DNA of 64,000 bases, from positions 18,406-82,405 of the IMG/VR virus record IMGVR_UViG_2848581113_000005; one strand, given 5' to 3'. Made by a program: the position numbers and the translations under genes. Positions 6,860 through 60,973 of this stretch are shown one piece after another. Under the pieces are notes generated by a model. That model did no database searches, was not told where the DNA came from, and worked only from the letters and a program-made list of their open reading frames with translations. This stretch comes from a virus. Its lineage: Duplodnaviria > Caudoviricetes. Numbering within the stretch: position 1 is the stretch's first letter; each line of letters opens with the position of its first letter.

Positions 6860-8755
6860 TTATCCACATTCATTTTCTGTAACATTCTGCCTCTTCCACA
6901 CTTCGTCATACTCAGACACCGGCATATTAGCGATATAGTGATAGGGTTCAGCCTGTTCCTGGTGTAAAAACTGATGGGATTTTTTGTCCAGATAAAGCCC
7001 AATACCGCCCTCCCAGCCATTGCCGTTCCGTTGTTTTTCAATCAGTATCATGGCGGCCGGACCGGCCAGTTTTTCCCGCTCCTTATCCGTTAACATTGCC
7101 CCGGTTTCCTGCTTTTGCAGTACACGTTCACGAGCTTTATTACGCCAGATAATCATCAGGTTGTCTGTCAAGTCGGTAATCGCCCCAGTGCCTTTGACAT
7201 CCATCTTCCCCGTCGGTCTCTCTTCACTGTCACCTTTCCGGCTGTGTGTCACCAAAATCACATGGCTGCGGGTTCTGTTTTTGAAGTCACACAAAGCATC
7301 CACAAAGGCTTTCTGTCCATTGTAATCATCTTCCCCGATACCACATTTCATCAGGCTGTCGATAACAAACAGCTGGATACCATAACGACGCTGCGCATAG
7401 TTAAAGATATCAATCACTCTCGCGGCTTTTGCCGTTCCCGTCAGGCCAAATACCCACAGCCGATCATCGTAAAATTGAAATGCCGAGTCGATTTCTATCA
7501 CAGGTGGTCTTTCTGAGCAGGCCGCCTGCTGGGTCAGGCGCTTAAGCAACTGCCCCGGTTTCAGCTCGAAAGAAGCCACACAAGCGCGTATTCCCTGCCC
7601 CATCGCTTCACACAGCAAATGCCCGACCATTTCACTTTTCCCATGTCCGTTCACACCATTAAGCACCGTGAGTTCTGACTCGCGAAAACTGAAATGAGGG
7701 TTCAACATGTCCCACGGTGTTTTAAACAGACAATGTTCCTGACCGTAGAAAGCATCAATCGTGTCCTGATAAAACTCTCTCGCACTGCACAACTCTTCCG
7801 GATCAAAAAAGATCGCCGTTTCAAGACAACGCACCACGTCATCCTGTGTCATACCCGCCTGTAAGCACGCGTTGATATCCTTGTACGGTAACCTGACTAG
7901 CCGACAGCGATATTCGCCCAATCGGTTGGCAATCTCTTTTGCGGCTTCCCGTCCCACGTCGTCGTTGTCCATTGAGATCCAAATTTCCTCAAAGCGATCA
8001 AGGTTGTGGTATTCAAACTCAATCCACTGCTGCTTGGCGCCCTTACCGCCCCCGAACGGCACAGAAAGGGCCGGCAAACCGTACTGGTGATAACTCATGC
8101 AGTCGATCTCCCCTTCACACAAAATAACTAGCCGGACGTGATTCGGTATCGCCTGCCAGCCAAACAGACAGGGTTCACACTGAGATTCAGCCATAATGAC
8201 TTTCTTGCCATTGGGACGCTCAGTGCTGATGCGCTTGACTTGCAACAACTCCCCGTTTCGTTTGTAAGGAAACGCAATAGCAGGTAATTCTCTGTTTTCA
8301 GCATGAAACCAGACACAGGCATCACCTATCTCAAACGCTTCCGCCGTCTGGCGGGTGATCCCCCGGCTTTCCAGATAGGCATAGCACACGTTGGGTTTAA
8401 AGACATGTTTCGTCAGCCTGTTGCGATCTGGCCGGACAAAGTTTTTTTTCTGCTTCGCGACGAAGTGGTGATCGTCATCCGCAATCCCCAGAAACTGTTT
8501 TGCCTCAGCCATGGCTTGATGCAGACTACAGTCACGCACCTGCACCCATAAATCCAGCAGATCACCACCGGTTCCTTCTGCAAAGTCAGACCAGACTTTC
8601 TTGCCGGACAGATTAATTTTCAGGCTTTTTCCCGCTTCGCCATTGACCGATCCCACTACCCACTCATGCCCTTCCCTACGCCCGTCGGGCAGCAGGTATT
8701 TTGTTACCCGCGCTACGCTACCCCAGAGTTTTTCCGATAGTTCTTTTGGTGTCAT
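6860..8755 (-). CDS. Primase-helicase (TOPRIM plus SF4 helicase, T7 gp4/Twinkle-like)
   Basis: CEGEIDCMS and DNDDVG TOPRIM motifs; GVNGHGKS Walker A; FVIDSL; LVTHSRK. Confidence 0.92.
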   Translation of the reverse strand: MTPKELSEKLWGSVARVTKYLLPDGRREGHEWVVGSVNGEAGKSLKINLSGKKVWSDFAEGTGGDLLDLWVQVRDCSLHQAMAEAKQFLGIADDDHHFVAKQKKNFVRPDRNRLTKHVFKPNVCYAYLESRGITRQTAEAFEIGDACVWFHAENRELPAIAFPYKRNGELLQVKRISTERPNGKKVIMAESQCEPCLFGWQAIPNHVRLVILCEGEIDCMSYHQYGLPALSVPFGGGKGAKQQWIEFEYHNLDRFEEIWISMDNDDVGREAAKEIANRLGEYRCRLVRLPYKDINACLQAGMTQDDVVRCLETAIFFDPEELCSAREFYQDTIDAFYGQEHCLFKTPWDMLNPHFSFRESELTVLNGVNGHGKSEMVGHLLCEAMGQGIRACVASFELKPGQLLKRLTQQAACSERPPVIEIDSAFQFYDDRLWVFGLTGTAKAARVIDIFNYAQRRYGIQLFVIDSLMKCGIGEDDYNGQKAFVDALCDFKNRTRSHVILVTHSRKGDSEERPTGKMDVKGTGAITDLTDNLMIIWRNKARERVLQKQETGAMLTDKEREKLAGPAAMILIEKQRNGNGWEGGIGLYLDKKSHQFLHQEQAEPYHYIANMPVSEYDEVWKRQNVTENECG

Positions 8756-8812
8756 GGTGCTTTTCCCTTTAACTTGCTAAATCCATAGCGAATCGCCAGC
8801 CTGTTATCAACA

Positions 8813-9541
8813 TCATCGTTCGATGTAGTAATAGTTCCCATATTTCTGAATGGGAGAATGATCCGGGCTCTGATTTTGTTGTGGCTCCCGCTGATACGTT
8901 TTCGCGTTACGCAACCAATTGTTCAATGCCCGTCCCCAATCCACAAACTGACTGCCTTTGCTGGCATGATGGTCAGCAAATTTTAAAAATTCTTCCCGCA
9001 GGTTCACGCCCAGTTCATTAGCCAGTGCCTGATGCTGTGCTGTTGGGAGAAAAATGTTTGGCAAGGAGTGTTTGTTTTCCGTTTTTTGTGACGATTTCTC
9101 GCAGACGTCTATAACAGGTTCCTTGACTGGTTCAAAAGAGTGACTGGTTCTGGTGCCATCTGGCGGCATAGGGGGTATATCACCTGACGGCACAGGGGTG
9201 CCAACAGGTGGCATAGGTATGTTTTCTGGCGGCACAGGGGGTATGCTTTTTGGTGGCACAGGGGCAGCCGATAAATTCAGGTAATAGACATTCGAGGCAT
9301 TTCCCTTACCGTTATGGTTACCCAGCCGGTTTTCCTTGATAAGCAGCCCCATCTCAATCAGGGCATCAATGTGACTTCTCACCGCACTCTTACTACATTC
9401 GCAATGATCTGCAATGTGTCGGTATGAAGGCCAGCACTCGCCTTTGTCGTTTGCATTATCCGCTAATTTTATAAGCACCAGTTTTCTCAGGGGGTTTCCT
9501 ACCCTGATACTCATTGCCTTCGCCATCAGACTCATACTCAT
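8813..9541 (-). CDS. Phage replication initiator (N-terminal HTH, C-terminal DnaT-like region)
   Basis: RKLVLIKLADNANDKGECWPSYRHIA HTH; DWGRALNNWLRNA C-terminus. Confidence 0.85.
   Translation of the reverse strand: MSMSLMAKAMSIRVGNPLRKLVLIKLADNANDKGECWPSYRHIADHCECSKSAVRSHIDALIEMGLLIKENRLGNHNGKGNASNVYYLNLSAAPVPPKSIPPVPPENIPMPPVGTPVPSGDIPPMPPDGTRTSHSFEPVKEPVIDVCEKSSQKTENKHSLPNIFLPTAQHQALANELGVNLREEFLKFADHHASKGSQFVDWGRALNNWLRNAKTYQREPQQNQSPDHSPIQKYGNYYYIER
9161..9264. repeat. Five iteron-like repeats (GRYGGCAYAGG) inside rep; probable origin
   Basis: Five copies spaced 21-24 bp apart, about two helical turns. Confidence 0.65.
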
Positions 9542-9633
9542 GCCGTTTCCCCCTTACAGTACGCTAAACAACATCCACATGTTCATATCGGACTCATCCA
9601 AAACGCCATGCATAATCCACCACCGACGGGAAC

Positions 9634-9870
9634 TTATTCATGGGCTTTGACTTCAGGCGTTGGAAAAACTTTAGGCAGATCAGGACGCAGTTCATGAGCC
9701 AAGACTTCCCCGTTCGAAAAAACTACGATATCAGGCACCAACGACACCGAAACCCGTTTTTTTCCGTATAACCATGCGCTGATGAGAGATTGTCTGCACC
9801 CAAGAACCTGAGCCAGCTTTGTTTGACTACCTGCAATTTTTATAACTTTTTGTATCACGCTGTTTTTCAT
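9634..9870 (-). CDS. Cro-like repressor (YdaS family)
   Basis: AGSQTKLAQVLGCRQSLISAW...HELRPDL; GGAGAAGG RBS; divergent from cI. Confidence 0.85.
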   Translation of the reverse strand: MKNSVIQKVIKIAGSQTKLAQVLGCRQSLISAWLYGKKRVSVSLVPDIVVFSNGEVLAHELRPDLPKVFPTPEVKAHE

Positions 9871-9902
9871 TAATGCCTTCTCCAACACTACAGCAATAAT
9901 CT

Positions 9903-9968
9903 TATCACTATAGATCAATGTAAATCACTATTGGTGTATTTGTAAAGGTATCACTTTAGAGATAGAAT
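9903..9968. promoter_or_regulatory. OR-like operators and PRM-like promoter of prophage A
   Basis: Three sites resembling TATCACTWWAGTGATA at 9903, 9923 and 9949; TTGTAA(9940-9945)-17bp-TAGAAT(9963-9968) points toward cI. Confidence 0.7.
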
Positions 9969-10011
9969 GAGAAACAGATGTTCCAAGACAGGAGTGCTTG
10001 GGCTATATCAT

Positions 10012-10225
10012 GTATTTCACGTAAATGCGGGAATAACAATCACGGTTCGCCGGTGTCTTTACCTAAGCTCACAGATTCCCCGTAAGTACGGGGATAACTG
10101 AAATCTGGATGCTGCCGTTGCGGGTATAAGCACAGGTTCCCCGTAAGTACGGGGATAACTCACAGACAGTTAGAAGCCAATAATCCTTTTTAAATAGTTT
10201 CCTCATCGGTACAGAGATTGAACTG
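10012..10225 (+). CRISPR. Cas-less type I-E-like mini-CRISPR array: two near-identical repeats, two degenerate flanking repeats, three spacers
   Basis: AGATTCCCCGTAAGTACGGGGATAACTG (10073-10100) and AGGTTCCCCGTAAGTACGGGGATAACTC (10134-10161); degenerate GTATTTCACGTAAATGCGGGAATAACAA (10012) and AGTTTCCTCATCGGTACAGAGATTGAACTG (10196); period 61/61/62 bp; the TCCCCGT-AAGT-ACGGGGA hairpin matches the I-E layout GTGTTCCCCG...CGGGGATAAACCG. Confidence 0.85.
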
Positions 10226-10283
10226 AAGAGATAAATTGATTTGTTCTCTGTAAATACGAAGGTAAACCACTCATGAGGCACTT

Positions 10284-10895
10284 ATGACTCTTGCTGATAG
10301 ATTGAAAGAAGCCATGGCAGATAAAGGGCTTACCCAATCCGCTCTTGCAGAAAAAGCCGGCATGGCTCAATCCATGATATGGAAATTACTCTCAGGAAAA
10401 GCAGCCAAAACAGGTAAGCTCGTTGATTTGGCAAAGGCGCTTGGCGTACGCCCGGAATGGCTCAGTGATGGCAGCGGTAGTAAATATCAAACGGGTGAGG
10501 CTGATTTTGCTGTCATGCATGACAACCGTTATGTACCTATAAAAATTTATGAGGAAGAACAAGAAACCCATGAATCATTCATGGTTCCTGCCCTTTCTGA
10601 ACTGCAAACCCATTTTGATTCATGCCGGGCTTATCGTATCACCCAGAATACAGGCTGCGCTGAAGCGCCGGAAGGGACTTTAATCATTGTTGATAAAGAT
10701 GAAGAAACTGCCAATGATGATTTAGTCTATGCGCGTATAGGCGATCATTATTCGGTTTATCGTTATAAGCAAGGTGGCTCAGTCAGCTTTTTGTCTGTTG
10801 ACGACACGCGCATACCCTTGATAACCCTTTCACCTGGCATTGACATAATTGGTGTTATTGTTTATTTATTTCGTGACATGAAACGGAGACGATAA
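10284..10895 (+). CDS. CI-like repressor (HTH plus degenerate S24-like domain)
   Basis: LADRLKEAM...LTQSALAEKAGMAQSMIWKL...LAKALGVRPEWL; the C-domain lacks obvious GDSM and xKR catalytic motifs. Confidence 0.88.
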   Translation: MTLADRLKEAMADKGLTQSALAEKAGMAQSMIWKLLSGKAAKTGKLVDLAKALGVRPEWLSDGSGSKYQTGEADFAVMHDNRYVPIKIYEEEQETHESFMVPALSELQTHFDSCRAYRITQNTGCAEAPEGTLIIVDKDEETANDDLVYARIGDHYSVYRYKQGGSVSFLSVDDTRIPLITLSPGIDIIGVIVYLFRDMKRRR

Positions 10896-10983
10896 TTCTC
10901 TCATTCCATATCAACCTTTCACGCATAACCTCCCGGTTTCACTCGAAATACGCCCAAATCTTTCCTCCCTTTACGCCAAGACA

Positions 10984-10999
10984 CTGTTTTTTAACACAG
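10984..10999. promoter_or_regulatory. Putative LexA box
   Basis: CTGTTTTTTAACACAG fits CTGT-N8-ACAG; it sits inside a longer inverted repeat. Confidence 0.5.
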
Positions 11000-11102
11000 C
11001 GTCTTGGGTGTTACTTGACTCATTGCAATTATCAATTCATGAAACAATTTCAATCCTATAAAATTATTTAATATCAATGAGATAATTAAATAAAACCAAT
11101 TT

Positions 11103-11187
11103 TTATCACTATAGGTATGGATTTAACAGAACTTAGGTGATAATGTTAGTCTCATCAAAGTGATAGGAATAATCACCAAAAGATTAA
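11103..11187. promoter_or_regulatory. OL-like operator cluster and PL region of prophage A
   Basis: ATCAC/GTGAT half-sites as at OR: TTATCACTATAGG, TTAGGTGATAA, AAAGTGATA, AATCACCAAAAGATT. Confidence 0.6.
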
Positions 11188-11199
11188 TAGCGAGGATTT

Positions 11200-11619
11200 A
11201 TGAGTACCTTTATTTCTGGCACTACCGAGAAACCGACTACAAAACAAAAAAACGCCATAAGCATTAAATATATTATTGCAAATATCGCACAAGCAGACGT
11301 TTTGCACTCAGGAACAACACAGATCCCCTTTTTGGCAGACCCGCGTTTGAATTCATATAATAAGTACAAACACCGGAATAACTGCATGGATACAAAAAAT
11401 AAAAAGGAATTCAAATATCATATACTGACGACCTATCTGGCCAGCCAAAAACAGACAAAGCCGGCTCCTTGCTATAAATTAGAAACTATCATCGATTACG
11501 GTTATGCGCTCTATAAGCGGAGAGGACGGTATATGTATTTAATTGATATCATCCCTATTATTAAAACAAAAAATAAAACACCATTGGCAATAAAAAACCG
11601 TTACACAACAAACCAATAA
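11200..11619 (+). CDS. Hypothetical protein, first gene of the PL operon
   Basis: GAGGA RBS; position after OL; no recognisable family. Confidence 0.4.
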   Translation: MSTFISGTTEKPTTKQKNAISIKYIIANIAQADVLHSGTTQIPFLADPRLNSYNKYKHRNNCMDTKNKKEFKYHILTTYLASQKQTKPAPCYKLETIIDYGYALYKRRGRYMYLIDIIPIIKTKNKTPLAIKNRYTTNQ

Positions 11620-11951
11620 AATAAAAAATATAATTTTTATAAGTATAGAAACTTAATTACAGTGACTGCACTGGGGAATATTTCGATATAAATTTAGACC
11701 GGTTACACATAAGAAGAGAATATGAAATATATATTATATGAGAACTACAAAGCTGGAATAATTTTTCATACTGATATGATGAACGAGAACCTGATGTGGT
11801 GATCTACAACTAAAGATTAAAAAAACTCAAATGGTATTCCTCAGCACTGGACCGGAATACATCATTTTTGTGTGACGGATGTGAAGGTAACCACTGAAAA
11901 AGTTGTCAGGGTGGCTTTGGCAAGCAATTATCAGAAAGGAAGTAGTAAGTC

Positions 11952-12134
11952 ATGGCAACGAGATACATTAGTCTTAAAGAAATGTGCAAATTGGTAGGGA
12001 AGAGCCATCCTACTTTGTGGCGGATGTGGGCAAAGAGAAACGAATTTCCAAAACCATCAAAGACAGAAAGCGGAATTTTTTTGGGCTGGCCTGAAGAAGT
12101 TTATGAAAAGTGGGTTAAAGAGAAAAATCCTTAA
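11952..12134 (+). CDS. AlpA-family regulator, probable excisionase of prophage A
   Basis: RYISLKEMCKLVGKSHPTLWRMW...FPKP...GWPEEVYEKW; next to the att site. Confidence 0.8.
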   Translation: MATRYISLKEMCKLVGKSHPTLWRMWAKRNEFPKPSKTESGIFLGWPEEVYEKWVKEKNP

Positions 12135-12185
12135 GACACCCATTAGAACACCTGCACTTCCTGCAGTATCTAGAAAAAATTGATA

Positions 12186-12198
12186 AGTTATTGATTTT
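12186..12198 (-). promoter_or_regulatory. IHF-like site next to the att core
   Basis: Minus strand AATCAATAACTTA fits WATCAANNNNTTR. Confidence 0.55.
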
Positions 12199-12200
12199 AA

Positions 12201-12245
12201 TGGTACGCCCTACAGGATTCGAACCTGTGACCTACGGCTTAGAAG
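12201..12245 (-). tRNA. 3' 45 nt of tRNA-Arg(UCU) (argU-like); att core duplication, not a complete tRNA
   Basis: Minus strand CTTCTAAGCCGTAGGTCACAGGTTCGAATCCTGTAGGGCGTACCA: anticodon loop with UCU, T-arm GTTCGAATC, CCA end; 5' half absent. Confidence 0.9.
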
Positions 12246-12306
12246 AAAGTAGGTTGTTAAATATCATATTGAAATATAAAGATTTACCTTTGCTCGCATC
12301 GTATTT

Positions 12307-12379
12307 TGTGTCGTTAATTGTCTAATAATGATTTTGGTTGTTGTTCATGTGTCGTTAGTAGAGACACAAAAACGACACA
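12307..12379. repeat. Integrase arm-type sites (ACGACACA and its inverse)
   Basis: TGTGTCGT at 12307 and 12348, AGACACAA at 12362, ACGACACA at 12372; the same motif occurs at 63948 and 63959. Confidence 0.75.
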
Positions 12380-12425
12380 GTACCTTGTGCATTAGATGTG
12401 TATGCTTTGCCCTTGTTCCACCAGC

Positions 12426-13688
12426 TTACTCCCCAATCTTCTCCCTCACATTCCACACCGAATCCTCCGGCATCTGCACACGGACATCCAGACGGCATCC
12501 TTCGGGAATGTCACAGGGTTCACCGTCGGCATAATAGACCCGCTCATCCCCCACGAAGGTTTTTATCTGCCAGTTCTGAAAACGTTCTGGTAAGTGGCTG
12601 TGCTGACGGTGGAAGACCTCTATCGTGATGCTGCCGTCTTTTTCCACCCGGTCATCAAGGTAAATCAGTTCGAGGCCGTTGTTGTTCTTCGGTGAGGAGA
12701 TACCGCCGTGTACACCCCATGCTTTATCTGAATTATAGCCGAGGATATTCTCTATCTGATAATGGCCCGGGCCCAGTTTGGTGACCGTGGCCCCTTCCGA
12801 TTCGTCGTTGGTGGTAAAGGTGCCGTCGGGGTGGATTTGGATGATGGGGGAGGAGGCTCTGAGAAAACCGTTGCTGTCTTTGGTGGTGTTGCCTGTATTA
12901 TAAAAAGATATCCACTTAGTCCACTGACCACCAGATCGAAAACGAGTTGCCATCCTATTACCTTCAATTTGCAGCTGAGCTATTCGCCCGGTGTTGTCAC
13001 TACCCCCGTTTCGCGTCATAACCATAATAGGGGCATAATCAGCCCAATAATTATCGGCACCATAGCCACCTGCACCATACCAGCCAGTTGTAACCAGATT
13101 ATTCGCATCGGCAACACTCTGTGCTTGTGGATATGCAATTGGATTTGTCCCTACACCATAATCACCCAGTTTTAGAGCATCCGCTAAACCAAGGTTTTTC
13201 ACAAACTCCTGTTTATTGGGAATATCTGCGCCGTTCTGGGATTTCGTTAATTTCCCCTCAACTGACTGATTTAAATCATTCATCGCGGCATACAGCGCCT
13301 TAATCGACTGCAACGCCACCGTCTGACCGTTCGGCAGTGTCACGTTGATCACGCCATTCTGCGACATCCATTTATCCATGTTCTGGAGGAACTGGACGAT
13401 ATAGCTGTTAATTGCCACCATATGCCGCGCCGCATCCGAGACGGTATCGGGAACGGTCGTTTGTATCTGGTAGGTCACATTATTCAGGGTGACGGGGACC
13501 TTATCGGCCAAAACCAATTCCGTATCAGAGTTCACCGCCTGAATCAGGTGCAACAAGTTATCCTTGCCGGACTGGATGACAATAAGTTGTCCCGGCGCCA
13601 CCCCGTTGATGTTGGCTTTAAACTGGGTGCCCGTGCCCCGGACAATCGCCGAGCCGGACACAGTGCTAAGAGTGCCTTGTGAATACAT
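12426..13688 (-). CDS. Tail fibre protein
   Basis: MYSQGTLSTVSGSAIVRGTGTQF N-terminus, KSQNGADIPNKQEFVKNLGL motif, C-terminal DSNGFLRASSP...DIPEGCRLDVRV domain. Confidence 0.88.
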   Translation of the reverse strand: MYSQGTLSTVSGSAIVRGTGTQFKANINGVAPGQLIVIQSGKDNLLHLIQAVNSDTELVLADKVPVTLNNVTYQIQTTVPDTVSDAARHMVAINSYIVQFLQNMDKWMSQNGVINVTLPNGQTVALQSIKALYAAMNDLNQSVEGKLTKSQNGADIPNKQEFVKNLGLADALKLGDYGVGTNPIAYPQAQSVADANNLVTTGWYGAGGYGADNYWADYAPIMVMTRNGGSDNTGRIAQLQIEGNRMATRFRSGGQWTKWISFYNTGNTTKDSNGFLRASSPIIQIHPDGTFTTNDESEGATVTKLGPGHYQIENILGYNSDKAWGVHGGISSPKNNNGLELIYLDDRVEKDGSITIEVFHRQHSHLPERFQNWQIKTFVGDERVYYADGEPCDIPEGCRLDVRVQMPEDSVWNVREKIGE

Positions 13689-17876: not shown

Positions 17877-18452
17877 TTATTGCTGATCTTCCGCATAGAT
17901 GCCGGCTGAGATAATCGCCCCGCCAATACGGCGCTTGCCATAGCCCACCGGCACGGGATTCCCCTGTGCGATGGAGTTGACCGGTCCCCCAAAGGCATAG
18001 GACGGTTTATTGTCCGGATCTTCCCGTCGGGCCAGTCCCCCCGGCATCGGCGACAGCATCTGCACCACGCCCCCCAGCATCATCGACACCCCTGACATCA
18101 CCAGCGGCACCCCGTATGGCGTGGCCCACATAAACGCCCCGGCCACCACCATCACCGCCCCGAGGATAGTCTGAAAAACACCCCCGCGTTTGCTGCCAAT
18201 CACCACCGGGGCAATGCGGATGTCGTCCTCACCGGAAAATGCCAGTTCATCCCGGCTGATATTGCGTTTTCCGCTGAACACCGCAAAGGTCAGTCCACGC
18301 TCTTTCGCGGTCAGCAGGAACTTTTCGAAGCCGTCAATTAAGACAGACAGCGCCCGGATGGCTTCCCGGGGAGATGATACGGCCAATTGATACTCCCGCC
18401 CGAAGCGCGCACCGAGTATTCCGTATAACCGTATTATTCGTACTGTTTCCAT
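17877..18452 (-). CDS. Tail assembly protein I
   Basis: IRLYGILGARFGR...PSYAFGGPVNSIAQGNPVPVGYG. Confidence 0.92.
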   Translation of the reverse strand: METVRIIRLYGILGARFGREYQLAVSSPREAIRALSVLIDGFEKFLLTAKERGLTFAVFSGKRNISRDELAFSGEDDIRIAPVVIGSKRGGVFQTILGAVMVVAGAFMWATPYGVPLVMSGVSMMLGGVVQMLSPMPGGLARREDPDNKPSYAFGGPVNSIAQGNPVPVGYGKRRIGGAIISAGIYAEDQQ

Positions 18453-21662: not shown

Positions 21663-22487
21663 TTAGTTTAGCAAACCAACTTTCCGTTCAAGCGCACGCT
21701 TCGTCGAGTAAGTCGCTCCGGATACATCCCATAAGTAAGTATGAAACCTAGAAGTAATCGGTGAATTCAGTAATACCATCGCTGGTGATATCGATTCTTC
21801 CCAAATGTCAGCCATCTTCTTAAGCTGTCTGTAAATTACACCAATGTTACTTAATTCAAGAGATAGGTCTATTTCCGTAGATTGAGGTACAAACAATTCT
21901 TCACGCCCCAGAAACTCACCTTCAATCGCTTTGGTTGCCAGATACTCTATTGCAGAGGGTAATTGTTCATCTGTAAGCTCATTTATATGACTTACTCCAA
22001 ACTCATGATGCACCATTTGGAATAGCTTCTTGCTATTTATTCCATATTTGCCCATCAACGTATTAACCAGACCACGTAATGGTGTACGATCTTCGACTGT
22101 GGTTTTTTTAGCTTTAACCTCGCCAGTTGTCCAGTATTCATAAAGAACGTCATCACACTCTTCCTGATAACGGATAACTTTATCCCTGATCGATGCTTTC
22201 ACTTTATTAGGGCTGATAGTGGCTAACCAGCCAGCAAGTTTGCGGAGGGCTAGACAAGCCATATTGCGTTTTTTGCCATCTGCGGCAACTATAACGATTT
22301 CCGTTACAGTTGATTTAAATCTTTGTTTTATCTTCTCTAATTGCGATTGCCAAGCTAAACCCATGCCATCAACAATAGGTCGCATAGGTACATATGGTTC
22401 ACCATTATAATTAACCAAATATAGATGATCGCCGTGAAATGGGACGTTGATTGTGTTACTTGATTCATTAAGTGGTATACTTAGCAT
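21663..22487 (-). CDS. Antirepressor (P22 Ant N-terminal domain)
   Basis: VPFHGDHLYLVNYNGEPYVPMRPIVDGMGLAWQSQ...LRKLAGWLATISPNKV...YQEECDDVLYEYW. Confidence 0.9.
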   Translation of the reverse strand: MLSIPLNESSNTINVPFHGDHLYLVNYNGEPYVPMRPIVDGMGLAWQSQLEKIKQRFKSTVTEIVIVAADGKKRNMACLALRKLAGWLATISPNKVKASIRDKVIRYQEECDDVLYEYWTTGEVKAKKTTVEDRTPLRGLVNTLMGKYGINSKKLFQMVHHEFGVSHINELTDEQLPSAIEYLATKAIEGEFLGREELFVPQSTEIDLSLELSNIGVIYRQLKKMADIWEESISPAMVLLNSPITSRFHTYLWDVSGATYSTKRALERKVGLLN

Positions 22488-37039: not shown

Positions 37040-38416
37040 CTACCCCAGCATGTCAGGTTCTTTATTTCGGAGTTGATCTTCGATAGCCTCCGGCAATTCG
37101 TCCTGTGGAACAATGTTGATGCTTTGCAGGTATCGAATGAAATCGACCTTACGCATTTCGCCAGACTGGACAGCAGATAGCAGCGTGGAAATGGCCGCAG
37201 AATCAAGCTGGGCAATGTCATAGACTTTGTTCAACTCAATTGTGGCTCCCCCTGCACCAGCGAATTGAACGCAGAACTGGAGCGCCCGGCTAAATGCTTG
37301 TTCAACATTGCCGGCACATAGCGATAAAATGGAGTTATCCGTCTGCGCCTCGTTTTGTGCCTGTGTAGCTGTTCGTGCCGATGTGCCGCGCTCCACCAGT
37401 TTAGCCCCCAGCATGGCCATCTGCTTTTCCCGGCGCTCAGCTACGGTGATTTGGATATTGCGCTCTTCAGGTTGGGCGAATTTCATATCACCGTTTGGCG
37501 GCAGCAATATTCCATTACGTGACCCCACCGTAAAGCCATCAGAAAAATATTTATCCGCCCATACTTCGGTCAGTCCCGTCAAGGCCACCATCGGCTGCCC
37601 TACTGTATGGGCTGATTCTGCAATATCGGCTTCAGCCTGATAATGTTTGATATTCACATAGGCAATATCCGCCAGTGGTGGTGCATCCGGTGTGTGATCA
37701 TTGTTCATTGAGCCTATCCATGACCACGGCAATTCAAATAATGGCTGACCTGTTGCATCTTTCAGTTCCACCCAGTCATGCGCAATCAAATTGCCGTCCT
37801 GATACCAGTGTCGTGAATATGCCCGCCCCTCAATGAGCCTCAACTCAATCCAGTGATCAATCAGTTGCAAATCAAAGTTATCCGTGTCCTTCGGCTCTTT
37901 ATAATGCACCACCACCAGCGATGTTTTCCCGTTGGTCACCCGCCAGTTAATAATTTCCTTGGCGGTAAATAATCGGATATAGGGGCGTCCTTTTTCAGCC
38001 TCTGATTGAATGCCCGAACCAGAAAAATCACTCAATAAACCTGCTCGCCCGCGCTGTAATACTTGGGATAACGCATCGCGTATCATCTGTGTTAATGGCT
38101 GGCCTTCACCATCAATATCCGTTTCCAGATACTCAATGCCCCCGGAGATATCAATTTTGACGGGTTTATTGAATGCAATACCCAATAACCCACTCAGGGT
38201 GCGCCCCGTCGCGTTGATAAATGACGCCCGGAGCAAATAACGCTCATAGCGCTTATTACTTGCATCATCCTTCTCTTTCTTATCTGCCGGATGGGGCAAG
38301 TACCTTTCTTTCCGGCTCTTAATCACCCGTTCGCCATCAACACAATCGCCGATCATGTTCCATTCTGACAAAAACTCGGTGTAGGCCGGATGTCTGTAAT
38401 CAACGTTTGTGCTCAT
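37040..38416 (-). CDS. Portal protein (DUF4055-type)
   Basis: YERYLLRASFINATGRT, PPLADIAYVNIKHYQ; directly after TerL. Confidence 0.88.
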   Translation of the reverse strand: MSTNVDYRHPAYTEFLSEWNMIGDCVDGERVIKSRKERYLPHPADKKEKDDASNKRYERYLLRASFINATGRTLSGLLGIAFNKPVKIDISGGIEYLETDIDGEGQPLTQMIRDALSQVLQRGRAGLLSDFSGSGIQSEAEKGRPYIRLFTAKEIINWRVTNGKTSLVVVHYKEPKDTDNFDLQLIDHWIELRLIEGRAYSRHWYQDGNLIAHDWVELKDATGQPLFELPWSWIGSMNNDHTPDAPPLADIAYVNIKHYQAEADIAESAHTVGQPMVALTGLTEVWADKYFSDGFTVGSRNGILLPPNGDMKFAQPEERNIQITVAERREKQMAMLGAKLVERGTSARTATQAQNEAQTDNSILSLCAGNVEQAFSRALQFCVQFAGAGGATIELNKVYDIAQLDSAAISTLLSAVQSGEMRKVDFIRYLQSINIVPQDELPEAIEDQLRNKEPDMLG

Positions 38417-44712: not shown

Positions 44713-45027
44713 TTATTTCCCGTTCGGCTTCTCTCTTGTCGCCCAATAGCGATCGTGTTCTTCCGGCGTGGCTTTCTGGTCTTCAAATAAGTCCGCAATT
44801 TTAAAACCATCAGGAAGCAACGCCCATGCAACATAAAAGTATCGAGGTTTAAATTCTTCTCCTATCCATGGATAAATACCGACACATTCTCCGTCGTCAA
44901 ATCGGACATAGCCAATATGCCAACCGTCACAAGGGTTATAAACCAGTACTTCTTGATCATCCATATCAAATGTAGGCAGTTCAGAGGCAGGACGAAAAAC
45001 CAAGGATTCTGTTACGGGTGTAGACAT
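44713..45027 (-). CDS. Hypothetical phage protein
   Basis: 104-aa ORF after Q; YNPCDGWH and AWALLP motifs. Confidence 0.65.
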   Translation of the reverse strand: MSTPVTESLVFRPASELPTFDMDDQEVLVYNPCDGWHIGYVRFDDGECVGIYPWIGEEFKPRYFYVAWALLPDGFKIADLFEDQKATPEEHDRYWATREKPNGK

Positions 45028-60776: not shown

Positions 60777-60973
60777 ATGGATATTATCGACGCAGCAAAT
60801 GATTTAACAGAGCTGAATATATCCATGCTCTCCAGAACCGGAAACCACCACTAACCAGCATCAACAGTATGTGTAGATGGTGTGAAACAGAACCAGCAGC
60901 AGAAAACAGTGCATTCTGTAGTCGAGAGTGCGGGGAGGATTATGAGCGGGATCGGAGGAAAGATGGGAAATGA
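60777..60973 (+). pseudogene. TraR/DksA-like C4 zinc-finger gene with a 1-bp frameshift
   Basis: MDIIDAANDLTELNIS; adding one C at 60823-60824 continues HALQNRKPP...CRWCE...FCSRECGEDYE. Confidence 0.6.

Follow-up and report, generated by a model that had tools for sequence, protein, structure and literature searches.

The window considered here is a stretch of 64,000 nucleotides (nt), positions 18,406 to 82,405 of the 82.4-kb IMG/VR provirus record IMGVR_UViG_2848581113_000005 (Duplodnaviria; Caudoviricetes), whose host genome is that of Xenorhabdus szentirmaii DSM 16338, denoted G001 in the comparison set of 36 Xenorhabdus genomes used throughout. The subject of this report is a short array of repeats related to those of type I-E CRISPR systems, which lies in the leader of cI, the repressor gene of the first of the prophages in the window (prophage A).

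The region is lambdoid: cI, whose product combines helix-turn-helix (HTH) and S24 parts, diverges from a cro-like gene, and repeated operators overlap the promoters of both (Table 1). The whole window has just three perfect copies of the operator motif ATCACTNTNGNT, at 9904, 9924 and 11105, and a copy with one mismatch at 9950, inside the spacer of the cI promoter; the overlap of a PRM-like promoter with operators, first proposed in an earlier reading of these letters without database searches (the sequence-only reading), is thus indeed present. The layout matches OR1-OR3 with PR and PRM, together with an OL site beyond cI, and lambda likewise has divergent cro and cI, a set of three operators of which one overlaps the promoter of cI, and a further operator site past cI. 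However, the PRM transcript of lambda is leaderless, whereas this family of Xenorhabdus prophages has a leader of 18 to roughly 310 nt, with a hairpin that takes in the Shine-Dalgarno (SD) sequence and AUG of cI. In prophage B, also in the window, the gap between cro (start 51345, minus strand) and cI (start 51444, plus strand) is 98 bp, within the limit of 100 bp that had been given for it.

Table 1 Features of the immunity region and of the array in the cI leader, as positions in the window (aa, amino acids; MFE, minimum free energy; uORF, upstream open reading frame).
Feature	Positions	Strand	Basis or remarks
Primase/helicase gene	6860-8755	-	domain/PHROG searches
O-like replication initiator gene	8813-9541	-	domain/PHROG searches
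cro-like repressor gene, 78 aa, ATG 9870	9634-9870	-	Pfam YdaS_toxin/Cro (read from TTG 9918); PHROG 35 transcriptional repressor
PR-like promoter of cro, TTTACA-17-GATTAT	9896-9924	-	promoter scan
Three operator-like sites (9904, 9924, 9950)	9904-9965	.	motif search; conserved in relatives
cI promoter (PRM analogue), TTGTAA (9940-9945)-17-TAGAAT (9963-9968)	9940-9968	+	promoter scan, conservation
Leader hairpin 1, CCAAG...CTTGG	9982-10002	+	MFE fold; found with and without array
R1, degenerate repeat, 18/29, stem lost	10012-10040	+	repeat scoring; hybrid solo remnant in array-less relatives
Spacer 1	10041-10072	+	no target found
R2, 21/29, intact hairpin CCCCG 10078-10082 / CGGGG 10089-10093, ends ATAACTGA	10073-10101	+	repeat scoring, fold
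Spacer 2, 33-nt segment derived from host flgF	10099-10131	+	genus genome matches
R3, 23/29, intact hairpin CCCCG 10139-10143 / CGGGG 10150-10154, ends ATAACTCA	10134-10162	+	repeat scoring, fold
Spacer 3	10163-10195	+	no target found
R4, degenerate repeat, 17/29	10196-10224	+	repeat scoring
R5, degenerate repeat, 20/29; 3' end TAAACCA near canonical handle	10241-10269	+	repeat scoring
SD/AUG hairpin TCATGAG-GCA-CTTATGA, 7 bp, plus 4-codon uORF (ATG 10273, TGA 10285-10287)	10271-10287	+	fold, conservation
cI repressor gene, 203 aa	10284-10895	+	HTH_3 and Peptidase_S24; PHROG 4 transcriptional repressor
OL-like operator downstream of cI	11105-11116	+	motif search

The array and the leader that holds it

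The array lies between the cI promoter and the hairpin at the cI ribosome-binding site, both of which are conserved. The leader as a whole runs from 9969 to 10283, i.e. 315 nt, which agrees well with the roughly 310 nt of leader, followed by a ribosome-binding site and the cI ATG at 10284, that the sequence-only reading had described. A repeat search finds direct repeats within it at a period of 61 nt (copies at 10009, 10070 and 10131), and when plus-strand units are scored against the genus repeat GTGTTCCCCGTAGGTACGGGGATAAACCG, taken from the chromosomal array of G007, five units emerge (R1 to R5), of which only R2 and R3 have kept the stem CCCCG-N6-CGGGG. It is the combination of this hairpin with direct repeats at a period of about 61 nt that marks the array as type I-E. 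Over both strands of the whole window only 18 positions score at least 17/29; seven of these fall within the 270-nt stretch of the array (two of the seven being the minus-strand palindromic echoes of R2 and R3), as do all three positions that score at least 20/29. Because high repeat scores are concentrated there, all the sequence between about 10012 and 10269 is considered CRISPR-derived, leaving a mere 1-2 nt between its end and the hairpin of the cI SD sequence and AUG. In the folded leader the stems of R2 and R3 are fully paired, with an unpaired probability of about 0.

What these two repeats lack is the canonical 8-nt 5' handle ATAAACCG, their own flanks reading ATAACTGA and ATAACTCA. 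In the chromosomes of G007, G011, G034 and G006 the arrays, those adjoining a second, 208-aa type of Cas6e included, read ATAAACCG after the stem; the exceptions are a few repeats that differ by a single base and, in G006, one degenerate copy that stands alone. By homology to the genus repeat the plus strand is the CRISPR RNA (crRNA) sense, the orientation that had been claimed for the array, with the qualification that the handles are non-canonical and that the only spacer with a known source is reversed. An Rfam scan of the window returned no family at gathering score, and 9960-10300 gave only chance matches to small nucleolar and other small RNAs (E 0.9-3).

The hexamers of the cI promoter match the consensus at 9 of 12 positions, but six promoter-like sites were found in 1.8 kb as against 4.6 expected, and the score of TTGTAA-17-TAGAAT taken alone is no better than chance. 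Conservation is more informative. A 30-nt promoter/operator block, TTTGTAAAGGTATCACTTTAGAGATAGAAT, is kept in all 16 loci of the leader alignment (15 genus-genome loci, L034-L048, plus the viral locus L003) and in 16 of the 17 IMG/VR relatives found with the cI protein, L079 being the one without it. In the most distant viral relatives the block ends 25-26 nt ahead of the cI ATG, and because it directly precedes the gene in these short-leader forms, it is assigned as the cI promoter.

Past 10184 no promoter-like site reaches 8/12, the best -10-like hexamers there having -35 partners that score 3/6, so the scan offers no candidate for a promoter of cI's own downstream of 10225, whose presence the sequence-only reading had named as fatal to its case; nor is a plus-strand terminator predicted in the region. 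Twelve RNA-library runs hold the stretch. In one of low depth (X5) a single contig at depth 15.5 spans 9986-10955, taking in array and cI together; the contig of cro ends at 9887 with depth 5.5, and 9888-9985 and 10956-11165, among other stretches, have no cover. In X2, which is from another study, the contig ends at 10930 and 10931-11245 has no cover. These ends and gaps are weak hints only. With a conserved sole promoter, no predicted terminator and the X5 contig, the array appears to share a transcript with cI, as had been proposed, although the data, the contig included, support this weakly.

As to the surroundings, leader hairpin 1 falls just past the predicted cI transcription start, and its loop varies among relatives. 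A ribosome-binding site, GGAGAAGG, lies upstream of the cro-like ATG at 9870. Within the O-like gene there are two 40-nt direct repeats, 66 nt apart and 78% alike (9150-9260; 2424-2529 in L004), possibly the iterons of a phage origin. On the other side an OL-like operator cluster (11105-11180) separates cI from an open reading frame of 139 aa (11200-11619), which has no Pfam or PHROG match and stands where the first leftward early gene would be. No transfer RNA gene was found in 11500-13000.

Leader forms among relatives

A survey of the cI-cro gaps of related prophages, a check that had been suggested for this locus, shows the promoter block conserved, leaders of 25 to 315 nt, and the array in some relatives only. 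Past the -10 box the viral leaders measure 25-26 nt (six loci), 46-55 nt (three), 82-83 nt (four), 253-254 nt (two) and 315 nt (one). G001 and G024 have two good repeats and share their three spacers, and the IMG/VR locus L003/L064 reads like G024 over the aligned stretch. A form with one good repeat plus degenerate ones, shorter by exactly 61 columns (one repeat and spacer 2), occurs in G010 and G026 and in the viral loci L063 and L065. In seven genomes and four viral loci there is just one hybrid degenerate repeat, in which the front of R1 is joined near the end of R5 (each of the four 82-83-nt viral leaders holds one such hybrid), while the remaining loci have no repeat-like sequence. Counted over the 16 aligned loci, these forms comprise three with two repeats (L034, L035 and L003), two with one repeat (L036 and L037), seven with a solo repeat and four with none.

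In a cI tree the array-bearing and solo forms make up one clade with 100/100 support, and short-leader forms fall outside it; the repeat-less L044, L045 and L047 nest within the solo clade, and the one-repeat form L063 adjoins the window. The 61-bp difference between the one- and two-repeat forms fits either one integration or one deletion between repeats. The simplest history suggested by these sequences is that an array entered the leader once and was then eroded. In the sister clade it has collapsed or been lost while the cI ribosome-binding hairpin stayed unchanged. A separate rearrangement is seen in L003 (at about 1740-1810) and L035, both of the G024 type, where a deletion makes the replication gene run straight into the cI promoter at its -35 region; cro, two operators and part of the replication gene are gone, and the array and an intact cI are kept.

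A sequence downstream of the array, TCATGAGGCACTTATGA, is kept in all long-leader forms. It folds into the SD/AUG hairpin and encodes the four-codon uORF, whose TGA overlaps the start of cI, with the cI SD sequence GAGG at 10275-10278. The predicted accessibility of the ribosome-binding site is 0.26-0.30 alike with or without the array. Because both this hairpin and this accessibility are the same in relatives without an array, the array looks dispensable for making CI. In L038 and L039 the hairpin sequence is duplicated.

Searches beyond this group of prophages returned little. Among 50,697 phage records a query with 9600-10900 gave no match and one with 10030-10275 only fragments at E of at least 0.8. 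The sole metagenome match to a conserved 20-mer (L080) was rejected as due to chance, since it sits in an unrelated coding sequence, which we take to be the 3' end of a gene like those for non-ribosomal peptide synthetases.

Spacers and flgF

Only spacer 2 can be traced to a source. Of the 36 genus genomes, some 25 match the 33-nt segment 10099-10131 (the spacer plus one flanking base) at a single chromosomal site, inside flgF, which lies between flgE and flgG, at the motif AYTRNGSIQIS; there is one mismatch in G010, G029 and G012, and there are three in the window's own host. In flgF the segment is flanked by GGT on the RNA-sense side and by AAG on the opposite strand. Six chromosomal spacer-protospacer pairs in the window show which of these flanks is the protospacer-adjacent motif (PAM): they read AAG (three times), ATG, GAG and GTG, and an AAG-type PAM is therefore taken as the rule for the genus. 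With AAG on the opposite strand spacer 2 sits reversed, which gives the leader RNA an antisense orientation relative to flgF mRNA. The junctions tell the same story: their distances from the stem are 5 and 8 nt when the minus strand is read and 8 and 5 nt when the plus strand is, from which the unit appears to have been inserted in reverse.

In E. coli, type I-E adaptation by Cas1-Cas2 yields an insert of 33 bp together with a duplicated repeat of 28-30 bp, and the two-repeat form of the leader exceeds the one-repeat form by exactly 61 columns. We infer from these features that the unit may well record a real integration by Cas1-Cas2 of host flgF DNA into a phage-borne repeat, which would have taken place in a cas-positive cell. 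Such a self-derived unit would presumably be tolerated because the plus-strand RNA has the PAM on the wrong side and a bad handle.

It could be supposed instead that the segment acts on the host rod gene, either by antisense pairing of the leader RNA without any Cas protein or, in cas-positive hosts, in the manner of a defective guide, and so lowers motility or flagellum-dependent superinfection of lysogens. The segment is complementary to nt 289-321 of the 753 nt of its own host's flgF mRNA, with 29 of 32 spacer positions matching; the predicted duplex has -57.2 kcal/mol with that mRNA and -62.9 kcal/mol with flgF of G010, and about 46% of the segment is unpaired in the folded leader. As a precedent, a review cites the spacer of a plasmid type IV-A system that represses host pilN (PMC11656645). 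However, the target lies far inside the coding sequence, the segment is absent altogether from one-repeat relatives, and for use as a guide both the flank offered to Cascade on the RNA-sense side (GGT) and the handle, of 6 nt and non-canonical, are wrong. Moreover, in the Cas6e-positive genome G024 the resident spacer 2 differs from that genome's own flgF at positions 1 and 3, both in the seed, which looks like self-DNA that is tolerated rather than a guide that has been tuned. A regulatory role for the segment is on these grounds improbable.

The remaining two spacers are without a source: spacers 1 and 3 have no match in the 36 genus genomes, only matches at E of at least 0.8 among the 50,697 phage records, and, when searched against IMG/VR as four exact 20-mers, either the homologous locus L003 or nothing. 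This bears on the most obvious explanation for a phage-borne array, that it is a mini-array using the host's Cascade against competing phages. Viral mini-CRISPR arrays are reported by Medvedeva et al. (2019) to take part in interviral conflict. As the review cited above describes them, such arrays comprise one spacer or two, belong to viruses that have no cas genes of their own, carry the repeats of their host and have spacers that match related viruses (PMC11656645). The window's array resembles them in being phage-borne, with spacers of 32-33 nt at a period of 61 nt, but neither of the last two properties holds for it: its repeats differ from host repeats and have the wrong handles, two of its spacers match nothing and the third is host flgF. 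Of all the explanations weighed here, this one has the least to recommend it.

A closer parallel for the unit R2-spacer 2-R3 may lie within the genus itself. NilD of X. nematophila is reported by Veesenmeyer et al. (2014) to be a free-standing single-spacer I-E CRISPR RNA that depends on Cas6e and probably acts on endogenous genes. It shares with the window both the genus and the I-E repeat family, and R2-spacer 2-R3 is likewise a single spacer between two I-E repeats away from cas genes; unlike the window's element it is not known to lie in a cI leader or to have a spacer derived from flgF. A literature search found no paper on an flgF-derived spacer.

Host cas genes and possible roles of the leader RNA

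The boldest suggestion of the sequence-only reading was that the level of CI in this lysogen could be coupled to the host's Cas6e, and here the host genome itself is the main obstacle. G001 has no match to the Cas6e profile PF08798, which matches 21 of the 36 Xenorhabdus genomes at E 1e-44 to 1e-48; the single-genome control for this profile was positive only in Thermus, but the count across the genus shows it to be sensitive in Xenorhabdus. There is also no match in G001 to Cas1 (PF01867, for which the search control was positive in E. coli), nor to Cas7e (PF09344) or TIGR01907, though these last two add little as their controls were positive only in Thermus. I-E-type repeats are present in 27 of the 36 genomes, while in G001 there are none besides the two in the prophage. 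The array is thus found in a genome without cognate cas genes, and because Cas6e, Cas1 and Cas7e are all missing there, Cas6e cannot act on it in the X. szentirmaii lysogen. Elsewhere in the genus the array with an intact or wobble hairpin accompanies Cas6e in two genomes (G024 and G010, both with large arrays) and is found without it in two (G001 and G026). A second, shorter Cas6e of 208 aa occurs in G011 (C4), G012, G020, G034 and G036, the match in G036 being truncated to 147 positions; in G011 and G034, the two loci that were read, it adjoins arrays with the repeat CTGTTCCCCGTGAGTACGGGGATAAACCG.

The same mechanism could still operate in other hosts, Cas6e cleavage of the leader setting the 5' end or stability of the cI mRNA, so that CI and induction would report the host's Cas6e or Cascade, or anti-CRISPRs brought in by another phage. 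In favour of it are the probable co-transcription and the fact that, if the RNA were cut after G10154, the leader would be left 129 nt long and would begin with a 5'-OH; in one study, a 5'-OH product of Cas6f is more stable than a 5'-PPP product (PMC10651486). Against it, quite apart from the lack of Cas6e in G001, the ribosome-binding hairpin and uORF lie downstream of the array and are the same in relatives without it, the array has repeatedly been lost while cI was kept, and genomes with and without it show no difference in cas status. For cas-positive hosts the present data neither establish nor exclude such control, but it must be considered a long shot.

A more serious alternative is suggested by the solitary repeat units and Racr RNA anti-CRISPRs of phages and prophages (Camara-Wilpert et al. 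2023, PMC10651486). The hairpins of the cI transcript, lacking proper 5' handles, could hold Cas6e and Cas7e in non-productive complexes during lysogeny and so shield the prophage from the I-E system of cas-positive hosts. The stem is identical to that of the genus repeat and the handles are non-canonical; in the account just cited, RacrIF1 works because the product upstream of the Cas6 cut has no 5' handle, and activity was seen for two I-E Racrs. Like a Racr, the element is a host-type repeat mimic in an intergenic region of a mobile element, its promoter lies 105-165 nt upstream (Racrs being sought in that study within 250 bp of one), and the one-repeat relatives L036, L037, L063 and L065 resemble solitary repeat units. 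The element is present in the Cas6e-positive G024 and G010, and arrays of the genus do target prophage DNA of the window.

However, there are clear differences. A Racr has its own small transcription unit, whereas this element lies in the leader of the cI mRNA; it comprises five repeats, two of them good and three degenerate, together with spacers, and so is not solitary; and the window's host lacks a cognate system, so that any inhibition by the window's element is putative. Two of the four hosts with intact or wobble hairpins have no Cas6e, which is no enrichment over the 21 of 36 for the genus, and the element has collapsed or been lost in the sister clade, including in the Cas6e-positive G007, G012, G027 and G028. 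Since there is no association with cas status and loss has been repeated, strong selection for a Racr-like role is unlikely. No acr or aca gene was recognised near the array in the Pfam/PHROG annotation of its neighbourhood.

The spacer evidence is divided in a similar way. From a set of 219 distinct chromosomal spacers (a subset of those in the genus arrays), good matches to the window all fall at 22-61 kb, in the second prophage; four sites there, matched by spacers of G024, G004 and G010 and bearing ATG or AAG PAMs, are 60780-60811 (28/29), 37193-37224 (29/31), 44740-44771 (29/32) and 22300-22331 (22/23). In prophage A, which carries the array, the same 219 spacers give only a 17/18 fragment (9463-9480, E 0.006) and no convincing match, and the spacers of G010 and G024 have no match to their own prophage regions, L055 and L054. 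All in all a Racr-like role is conceivable but rather unlikely.

Prophage-borne type I-E arrays of another kind, the Cracr arrays of Salmonella (Liu et al., bioRxiv 10.1101/2024.10.29.618823), are also multi-unit, degenerate I-E arrays on an enterobacterial prophage. As defined in that preprint, their spacer-like part matches a cas promoter or CreR over at least 9 PAM-proximal bp, and their spacers, of 21-24 nt, match the casA promoter or CreR, unlike the 32-33-nt spacers of the window. This identification was rejected: in three cas loci of 18 kb each, from three of the 21 Cas6e-positive Xenorhabdus genomes, the window's spacers gave ten scattered 10- to 11-mers, about the number expected by chance, with no seed upstream of cas3 or in other promoters.

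Finally, several of these possibilities could be combined in a leader with a dual role, serving as an RNA anti-CRISPR in cas-positive hosts and, because Cas6e must then cut the same RNA, rendering CI output sensitive to CRISPR, with the 33-nt segment as an antisense arm directed against flgF. This too is doubtful.

The account that seems on balance the more probable, if not by much, is a simpler one, in which the array is a decaying type I-E array, a co-transcribed remnant in the cI leader that forms a passive, structured part of it and goes unprocessed in this host. An array would have been inserted once into the 5' leader of the PRM-type cI transcript, in an ancestor of this Xenorhabdus lambdoid prophage group. 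In a lysogen without Cas6e or Cascade the leader RNA would stay unprocessed and its two hairpins would be mere structure, while translation of CI would be set by the SD/AUG hairpin and the mini-uORF downstream of the array. Because these two elements are identical in relatives without an array, the array may be regarded as dispensable for immunity, and it would be in the course of loss through collapse between repeats. The lineage would once have lived in cas-positive cells, where the reversed, AAG-flanked flgF unit would have been acquired as a harmless footprint of Cas1-Cas2.

Some observations tell against this account, or limit the confidence to be placed in it. Over the six distinct array-bearing leaders the 10 stem columns show one change (C to T, compatible with a wobble pair) as against 7-8 changes in loop and flanks, a difference that hints at selection on the hairpin, although with so few sequences it is not significant; and both hairpins are perfect in the cas-less G001 as well as in G024, two loci that are 96% identical over 966 aligned nt. 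G001 is a draft assembly, so that the lack of cas genes in it is strong evidence without being absolute. Since prophages are mosaic, the past of the leader may be poorly reflected in the cI tree. As for co-transcription, the RNA contigs show neither transcript ends nor strand, and in X1 and X3 a single contig of 3.6 kb covers 8600-12200, to which DNA or read-through may have contributed.

Repeat units and mini-arrays carried by phages are already known; it is the location in a cI leader that is unusual, and the literature search found no paper with a CRISPR repeat or array in such a leader, although the supplements of the solitary-repeat-unit and Cracr surveys may list these prophages. As it stands the evidence points to erosion rather than to a tuned switch. 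Even so, the leaders form a natural series, from 25 nt through a solo repeat to one and then two repeats, which spans cas-positive and cas-negative hosts of a single genus, so that both a role as an RNA decoy and an effect of Cas6e on repressor output could be tested with existing strains. The reversed, AAG-flanked flgF unit would, for its part, be a clean footprint of Cas1-Cas2 placing host DNA in a phage-borne repeat. And if the array should prove to be only a relic, it would illustrate how fragments of CRISPR may be captured in the regulatory regions of phages and then eroded.

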